Positions 15,868 through 16,517 of a DNA stretch of 64,000 nt are shown here, in pieces. The notes below the pieces were generated by a model that was not told the DNA's origin, did not search any database, and was given only the letters and a program-made list of their open reading frames with translations. The stretch covers positions 73,216-137,215 of the forward strand of contig JARVGK010000003.1 of the NCBI GenBank assembly GCA_029762535.1, in the 5' to 3' direction. A program made the position numbers and the translations under genes. Position 1 is the first letter of the stretch. Every line of letters begins with the position of its first letter. Source of the DNA: Thermoplasmatota archaeon (lineage in GTDB: Archaea > Thermoplasmatota > Penumbrarchaeia > Penumbrarchaeales > Penumbrarchaeaceae).

Positions 15868-16033
15868 TGTATCCGGGGACCAAGGTCCATATCCTAAATT
15901 AAGATTGCTTCGGGGATGATCCGCTTAGATCGATCTATTATCATCCATCATCATTCATGAACCCCGGGATGTTTAATTATGGTCGAGTGGGGTTCGAATC
16001 CCGTGCGTCGCTAGAGCTACAACAAATTAGATA

Positions 16034-16120
16034 TGGTGCAGGGGAAGGGATTCGAACCCTCGAACCACTAAGGACCAGACCCTGAATCTGGCGCCGTTGG
16101 CCAGGCTTGGCTACCCCTGC
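16034..16120 (-). tRNA. tRNA-Leu (anticodon CAG), CCA encoded
   Basis: GCAGGGG/CCCCTGC acceptor stem, CCAGA-TTCAGGG-TCTGG anticodon arm, long variable arm, GGTTCGAATCC T-arm, ACCA end. Confidence 0.96.
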
Positions 16121-16442
16121 ATGTTTTTGCGTTTGTGCCTGGGTAGCGTATGGCCAACGGCGCCCCGAGACGCAGTCTCGGTGATGGCGCCTCGGATGGG
16201 TGGCATGTGCCACCCGTCCCCTTCCGCGAACGCTTTGGTGGTGAGACCAAAGGGTTCTTGGGCAGGCTTGGCTACCCCTGCATGTTTTTGCGTTTGTGCC
16301 TGGGTAGCGTATGGCCAACGGCGCCCCGAGACGCAGTCTCGGTGATGGCGCCTCGGATGGGTGGCATGTGCCACCCGTCCCCTTCCGCGAACGCTTTGGT
16401 GGTGAGACCAAAGGGTTCTTGGCCAGGCTTGGCTACCCCTGC
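16097..16442. repeat. tandem 161-bp repeat: three copies of the 24-bp tRNA-Leu 5' end separated by two identical 137-bp structured units
   Basis: TTGGCCAGGCTTGGCTACCCCTGC at 16097, 16258 (1 mismatch) and 16419; 16121-16257 is identical to 16282-16418. Confidence 0.95.
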
Positions 16443-16517
16443 GATATCTGGGCATCGTTGATACGATGTCGCCTTTAACGACCGTTCGATAATAAAGATA
16501 TCGATGAGAAGGTCTCA

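Follow-up and report, generated by a model that had tools for sequence, protein, structure and literature searches.

Gene-less tandem units in an archaeal tRNA-Leu gene may be elements that move as single-stranded DNA

The window (the whole 64,000-nt stretch of DNA that was analysed) contains two tandem 161-nt inserts in the D-loop of a tRNA-Leu(CAG) gene, each of which rebuilds nt 1-24 of the tRNA. Judged from its sequence and that of its relatives, the unit may best be explained as a non-autonomous element, mobile in the form of single-stranded DNA (ssDNA), that captures its target by pairing and is rescued by duplication here and by splicing elsewhere. We hold this explanation with roughly even confidence. 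Gene-less inserts flank a large share of the tRNA genes in the lineage and are unannotated, which matters even without guide targeting.

Two tandem units in the tRNA-Leu(CAG) gene

Each unit is made of a 137-nt body and a copy of tRNA nt 1-24 and holds no genes, and the bodies of the units at 16121-16281 and 16282-16442 are identical. The features of the array are as follows.

15956..16033, - strand: remnant of a second-family 3'-end unit, with an inverted T-arm copy at 15990-16002
16034..16120, - strand: intact tRNA-Leu(CAG) (ARAGORN; Rfam RF00005, 47.7 bits), nt 1-24 of which represent the copy that the adjacent unit restores
16090..16103, - strand: target segment, tRNA nt 18-31, spanning the insertion junction 16096/16097
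16121..16281, + strand (the putative folded, mobile strand): unit 1, 137-nt body and displaced tRNA 5' 24-mer
16121..16140, + strand: single-stranded linker, A/C-rich on the tRNA strand
16141..16147, + strand: second target-matched block, tRNA nt 5-11, which pairs with the duplicated 5' end
16151..16164, + strand: main target-matched segment (candidate guide), copy 1
16159..16191, + strand: arm hiding the guide half that matches the non-duplicated side
16193..16226, + strand: second arm, variable in sequence, with compensatory changes
16222..16257, + strand: terminal hairpin-plus-tail module abutting the junction (hairpin 16228-16257 with a G-G mismatch, tail 16222-16227)
16258..16281, - strand: displaced tRNA nt 1-24 with G20>C at 16262
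16282..16442, + strand: unit 2, body identical to that of unit 1 and outermost tRNA 5' fragment (body 16282-16418, guide 16312-16325, module 16383-16418, 5' fragment 16419-16442)
16470..16495, - strand: AT-rich boxes upstream of the array, by their sequence the probable original tRNA promoter

The linker at 16121-16140 resembles that of a unit in another genus (locus L002) and is unlike the local flank, and the arm at 16159-16191 is capped by a 7-bp stem with a C(GCA)G triloop (16165-16181). The remnant at 15956-16033 is nearly identical to the first ~77 nt of a unit behind tRNA-Leu(TAA) on contig C58 of the source genome. No TATA-like box was seen in the sequence of the units, the scan model not being an archaeal one.

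In the source run, the array had about twice the read depth of its flank, as it did in a related but independent strain. This supports two real copies, and the depth together with the presence in the related strain ruled out an assembly artefact. In the related strain, the flanking genes diverge by 10-13%, compared with ~4% in the unit. The neighbouring genes are metabolic, and none of the ten checked encodes a recombinase.

The initial annotation had described the 14-mer at 16151-16164 as the exact reverse complement of 16090-16103 (tRNA nt 18-31) and the 7-mer at 16141-16147 as a match to the tRNA 5' end, and both matches were confirmed, the second one falling at tRNA nt 5-11. A 14-nt match between body and tRNA arose in 0 of 3000 shuffles, which reached a maximum of 13 once. 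The 7+7 centring of the 14-mer on junction 24/25 holds at this locus but fails as a general rule, since most relatives join at 23/24 or 14/15. The three hairpins described before and their closure by the 24-mer were all recovered in the predicted fold of the + strand, which reached -86.9 kcal/mol (z -5.6), compared with -79.4 kcal/mol (z -6.7) for the - strand. With DNA folding parameters, the + strand of the unit is predicted to form a four-arm junction comprising the duplicate paired with one half of the segment, the internal copy paired with the other half, the variable arm, and the terminal hairpin, which ends at the junction. In the Rfam search only the tRNA passed, with no match to RtT or any other family; an RsmW match of 17.8 bits against 52 was dismissed as chance.

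Distribution of the units in the source genome and its relatives

Eight tRNA genes of the source genome carry units that repeat the 5' end of the gene, and about 20 carry units that repeat the 3' end. The tRNA-Ser(TGA) gene of the same genome has a homologous unit, in which the inverted segment has changed together with its tRNA. A covariance model built from nine units matched 17 of the 23 other genomes of the family, one further genome in the class, and one in another part of the phylum. A tRNA was called in 35 of the 40 loci retrieved, nearly always Leu or Ser, and most of the other five loci lie at contig ends. The units are gene-less and 110-200 nt long, and the tRNA fragment that each carries (nt 1 to 14-24) restores the gene. 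They accumulate in tandem, and several arrays mix unit families. An orthologous site may hold a unit in one genome and lack it in another, the tallies of filled and empty sites being biased by the choice of retrieved loci.

The junction varies among units (14/15, 23/24, or 24/25), while the matched segment stays near nt 16-31. Some units possess the module without a target-matched segment (L029, L030, L308, and L322), and others have a short one. The whole-unit architecture and the linkers are common to different genera and to Leu and Ser genes. A one-off fold-back duplication was ruled out by conservation across the family. Among 18 displaced copies, 7 have C, T, or A in place of the second G of the D-loop GG (tRNA nt 20), which is the position changed most often. 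A loose pattern run over genomes returned mostly bacterial noise and was discarded.

Covariation of the segment with its target and within the stems

The longest antisense match, taken over 29 units at 17 variant tRNAs, averaged 12.2 nt to the unit's own tRNA and 8.0 nt to the others, a comparison that overstates the difference because the units were selected with a match of at least 9 nt and kin are not independent. The own tRNA was the best antisense match in 26 of the 29 units, and 0 of 100,000 permutations were as high. Segment positions nt 21, 22, 23, and 30 change together with the target, and mismatches are retained elsewhere: five units still have C at nt 31 where the target has T, and three have T at nt 21 where it has C. 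These persistent edge mismatches indicate that the segment is passed on by inheritance, with its match maintained near the junction, rather than copied anew every time. The unit L318, which lies outside the model set and beside a tRNA with a different nt 24-27 string, matched at 13 of 13 positions. The 3'-end units (n = 75) gave 9.6 nt to their own tRNA and 7.1 nt to others (0 of 20,000 permutations). In all 11 units listed, the match to the target was at least as good as that to the element's own displaced copy.

In the stems, 24 of 50 pairs had changed on both sides, which is above all 500 shuffles and all slid controls, although the structure was drawn from the window unit and so favours that unit. 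The homologue check proposed by the initial annotation, in which an absence of covariation would count against its reading, thus found both guide/target and stem covariation.

Strand and nature of the folded molecule

Throughout the family, the strand antisense to the tRNA (the + strand of the window) carries ten G-G and no C-C mismatches, and C(GNA)G triloops favour it by 9 to 1. With DNA parameters, this strand folds lower in 18 of 19 units. Three-base loops outnumber four-base loops in the family units (89 vs. 28), and the G-T versus A-C counts alone were not significant per class. Triloops of the C(GNA)G type have high stability in DNA but not in RNA. The G-G mismatches and these triloops favour folding of the non-transcribed strand as ssDNA. 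The earlier proposal that the + strand is the folded molecule, possibly as ssDNA, gained from the family-wide strand bias and the DNA-type triloops. Around the terminal module archaea-wide, among the matches listed, the antisense strand carries the DNA mini-hairpin heptamer in 22 cases against 2, the flanks contain none of it, and UUCG tetraloops are nearly absent.

The initial annotation had also proposed an internal guide. At the level of sequence, the guide/target covariation over 17 tRNA variants, the stem covariation, and the + strand bias speak for it, but the RNA analogies that had been drawn (EBS/IGS and bridge RNA) fit less well than ssDNA.

The terminal module and tRNA introns

The phylum-level match of the covariance model is the tRNA-Gly gene of genome G114, whose 37/38 intron begins with the hairpin-plus-tail module. 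The introns of tRNA-Glu in G114 and of tRNA-Gly in another genome are also led by the module, with no duplication and with a full or relaxed bulge-helix-bulge (BHB). A strict 23-base module pattern was run over genomes and metagenomes and gave at least 243 contexts; the window module is a close variant with a one-base difference in the tail and lies outside this pattern. Among the matches listed, 80 of 80 genome matches are archaeal, the hosts comprising DPANN groups, Methanophagales, Methanocellales, Methanosarcinales, Thermococci, and Thermoplasmata, and the first pair of the module is G-C in 122 and C-G in 110 of 243 contexts (95% compensatory). The pattern also matched seven viral contigs, which were pooled with the other contexts.

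Removal of the insert restores a tRNA in at least 51 module contexts, about 30 of them convincing, and at least 19 module-led introns have the full 4-bp central and 2-bp outer helix. The module was further found in 16S rRNA-like sequence, in protein genes and spacers, at gene starts, behind tRNAs, and in intergenic and antisense positions. At least 27 contexts have a direct duplicate, and in a few of these an antisense segment lies at the junction or crosses it. Unrelated loci, too, hold inserts of the duplication type whose antisense segment spans the junction, namely L531 (17 nt) and L420 (11 nt, at a gene start). The base before the module is preferentially A, and only weakly so.

The arrival of archaeal tRNA introns is stated as open (PMC4090602; bioRxiv 10.64898/2026.10.13.758758), and the points where the units insert overlap with non-canonical intron positions that are already known (PMC4090602). 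A recombinase-coding element of different anatomy from that of the units has been linked to intron gain and to a scattered 5' fragment (PMC3293823). The units place the intron-starting hairpin inside a larger, evidently mobile insert with a long target-matched segment. A wider scheme, which we put forward as doubtful, is that ssDNA mini-elements address any site via a 10-16-nt internal guide, with one enzyme recognising the archaea-wide hairpin-plus-tail, and that such DNA-guided insertion is a main source of new archaeal tRNA, rRNA, and mRNA introns.

The module interrupts homologous protein genes at an equal position in L432, L461, L494, and L551, which makes it a candidate mRNA intron there. 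At L312:1510-1660 in G114, a tRNA-Gly(CCC) gene with two inserts (37/38 and T-loop) was missed by both ARAGORN and Rfam; consequently, genes of this type are hidden from annotation.

Proposed mechanism and search for the enzyme

If the unit moves as ssDNA, the strand antisense to the tRNA would be excised as a circle, and a protein supplied in trans would bind the terminal hairpin-plus-tail and cut at the foot of the hairpin. A single-stranded target would then displace the element's own copies and pair with the internal segment, and strand transfer would insert the unit and recreate the site, so that a further copy could enter. If the end module landed without a duplicate, the insert would survive as an intron provided that the target-pairing tail formed a BHB. 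The likeliest enzyme classes would be an HUH-type nuclease or a single-strand tyrosine recombinase. Since the modelled resting fold has the internal segment in paired form, a protein could also recognise the duplex without target pairing. The units offer a defined substrate, strand, cut position, and retargeting rule, and if pairing drives targeting, they would represent a natural long-guide DNA-programmed insertion system, so far reached by engineering IS608.

The Y1 transposase (PF01797) was found in none of the 24 family genomes, including the source genome, these assemblies being incomplete, and the Y2 transposase (PF04986) in two, with flanks and ends unlike the module. IS110 genes were present in 10, reverse transcriptase in 6, and an integron-like recombinase in 8 of the 24 genomes, and no surveyed enzyme class tracked the presence of units among them. 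The module contexts (at least 243) included no autonomous copy, and no gene recurred beside the module apart from ordinary tRNA-adjacent integrases and housekeeping genes. An HUH regular expression run over the frames of the source genome gave nothing credible. This genome has two integrase genes elsewhere and none inside the unit; EndA is present and reverse transcriptase is not. No circle or empty-site joint was found in the assembled contigs, where a circle junction equals a tandem junction.

The integron-like enzyme is an integron-integrase-like tyrosine recombinase of ~266 aa that occurs in varying contexts, at C25:100717-101652 of the source genome (L021:1213-2013, L285) and at L258-L263, L272, and L273. 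It is found in the source genome and seven relatives, and in G005 the gene sits within a tRNA-Gly unit array. Upstream of the gene is a conserved imperfect palindrome that resembles attC, and together they look like a one-gene self-mobile cassette. The upstream hairpin resembles the end arm of two 3' units, and as a mover of units this recombinase is a lead only. Against TIGR02249 it scored 187, with a cut-off of 265 and the match in two stretches. Separately, a family of short tyrosine recombinases (~230-285 aa, 48-83% identical) occurs at L269, L276, L277, L278, and L281, twice adjoining tRNA unit arrays, and was not found in the source genome.

Alternative explanations

The unit could instead be a fold-back attachment site, that is, an ssDNA element in which the inverted copy serves only to imitate the tRNA site in double-stranded form, to be read through protein-DNA contacts by a tyrosine recombinase, with one strand exchanged and the product resolved by replication. 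CTX phage at dif and integron attC are precedents for fold-back ssDNA recombination sites, and the part order of the unit (duplicate, loop, inverted copy, hairpins) is like that of an empty cassette. The junction reads AA/C here and G/TT, the integron core triplet, in several T-loop units, the mobile integron-like recombinase with its attC-like hairpin is at hand in the source genome and seven relatives, once within the tRNA-Gly array, and the mixed G20 and C20 displaced copies fit a heteroduplex overlap. We nevertheless consider this unlikely: a single recombinase would need to work on many tRNA sites unrelated to one another, the module itself does not end in GTT at the junction, and the G/TT strand is the folded one in the units, whereas attC recombines via the strand opposite to it. 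Moreover, G114 has module introns but no PF00589 match at 97% completeness, and the target-matching bases of L034 are unpaired in the predicted fold. A route through RNA has a poorer chance. Here, a transcript or circular intron RNA would pair with the pre-tRNA, be reverse-spliced by splicing endonuclease and ligase, and be copied to DNA, or the unit would be a guide RNA for an IS110-type recombinase. The insertion points overlap non-canonical intron positions (PMC4090602), and the source genome has EndA and one IS110 gene. The module starts real BHB introns in the tRNA sense, and a strain variant at 16151 gives a G-U pair in the RNA sense only. However, the mismatch and loop bias points to DNA and the untranscribed strand, no convincing BHB was seen on inspection of the window junction, the source genome is without reverse transcriptase, and the module is also intergenic and antisense. 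Bridge RNA guides sit in open loops, unlike the target-matched segments of the units, which are paired.

If only the hairpin module were mobile or fragile, the direct and inverted tRNA copies could be a by-product of repair by template switching at insertion, kept because the closed fold protects tRNA processing. This would yield local matching without a guide function, and the module is often alone, with imprecise displaced copies and junctions. The architecture and linkers common across genera and Leu/Ser genes, the inheritance shown by retained mismatches, and linkers that are not copies of the local flank speak against it and leave it a still smaller chance than the RNA route. The least probable of the four alternatives is a leader switch, already suggested by the initial annotation, in which a host-selected RNA device of decoy and antisense segment tunes the maturation of tRNA-Leu. 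Transcription from the probable promoter would pass through the units on its way to the tRNA, predicted folds let the antisense segment invade the tRNA, and the related strain keeps the unit at ~4% divergence against 10-13% in flanking genes. This reading is weakened by patchy presence, variable copy number, mixed families, a fold favoured on the untranscribed strand, and the same module at gene starts and behind tRNAs. Despite the decoy, the pre-tRNA is predicted to misfold at equilibrium (-212 kcal/mol vs. -198 for separate folding, ~14 kcal/mol), so that the units look like a tolerated cost; in this model, the decoy could help tRNA folding kinetically only.

Comparison with known systems

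A literature search, with coverage of subscription papers mostly lacking, found no description of such units. IS200/IS605 (IS608) and REP/REPIN-RAYT elements have ssDNA hairpin ends, a target chosen by base pairing, and gene-less derivatives moved in trans, as the proposed mechanism would have it for the units, and the units do have a strand-specific terminal ssDNA hairpin next to the junction. The natural guide of IS200/IS605 is 4-5 nt long, however, with a fixed target, no duplication, and a Y1 transposase, whereas the units have 10-16 nt across the junction and a 14-24-nt gene-restoring duplicate. Engineered IS608 reaches 12-17-nt targets via extended pairing (PMC5934647). The IS91 family is defined by a Y2 transposase with oriIS/terIS and a fixed tetranucleotide target, which the units lack, although the module ends in GTTC or GTTG at the hairpin foot, a superficial likeness to terIS (PMC13181058).

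Integrative elements that target tRNA genes by tyrosine integrases resemble the units in their insertion site, restoring direct repeat, and tandem accumulation. The units differ in having no integrase or cargo, a length of 110-200 nt, a D-loop site with the 5' end restored, an internal inverted target copy, and a conserved single-strand fold. Integron cassettes (attC) and the CTX phage attP likewise use an ssDNA site folded from inverted copies, have GTT/AAC at several junctions, and are found in tandem arrays, but the units have many different targets, a multi-arm junction in place of R/L boxes, the opposite strand favoured, and no linked integrase; the GTT core triplet is in the target, while the unit end reads C/TT.

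Archaeal BHB introns share the end module, similar positions, and a target-pairing tail, the unit being rescued by duplication rather than splicing. Inspection of the window unit showed only weak outer helices, and a close homologue (L458) scored poorly, whereas the homologous module forms a BHB in tRNA-Gly/Glu of G114 and about 19 others. Transposition of BHB introns has been described in Thermoproteales (Fujishima 2010, as summarised in PMC4090602). In IS110 bridge RNA systems and the IGS/EBS of group I/II introns, an internal sequence likewise addresses the target, but for the units the evidence favours DNA, the segment is paired at rest, and there is neither a ribozyme-size core nor an Rfam match. 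IS110 bridge RNA systems have guides in open loops, an adjacent DEDD recombinase, and a 2-nt core duplication; the units have a 24-nt duplicate, and the IS110 gene lies on another contig with no unit-like flank seen. The RtT repeats of E. coli tyrT are also tandem units of ~170 nt that repeat a tRNA end, namely the 3' end, while the units repeat the 5' end, have a covarying antisense segment, and gave no RtT match in Rfam. The units thus fail a defining test for each family considered, and their separate status would fall if the enzyme were a known HUH nuclease or tyrosine recombinase. By analogy, they would work like IS608-type pairing combined with the gene restoration of tRNA islands.

Further observations in the source genome

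Two further families of 3' units in the source genome and its relatives join in the T-loop at different positions and have a common loop 7-mer in opposite orientations, suggesting opposite mobile strands. Viral contigs gave only chance matches to the T-loop family pattern. Arrays of A-tract/T-tract hairpins of 3'-end units lie away from tRNAs at C31:5370-5720, C61:1-400, the end of C4, and C25:47600-48000, as well as at loci L044 and L052, some behind a TATA-like box and some apparently within a gene.

At C58:93330-94330, an IS481-like transposase gene is bracketed by 15-bp direct repeats identical to the inverted tRNA-Ala segment found in a 3' unit. At C29:1086-4300, a protein of 702 aa that starts with a histidine-rich stretch and is probably a heavy-metal ATPase is flanked by tRNA-Met(CAT) units on one side and by a distant tRNA 3'-end repeat and then another unit on the other, a possible cargo-carrying version of the unit. 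An ordinary integrase island at tRNA-Trp (C53:7718-8098 and C102:1-800) is followed by three mini-units after its far end.
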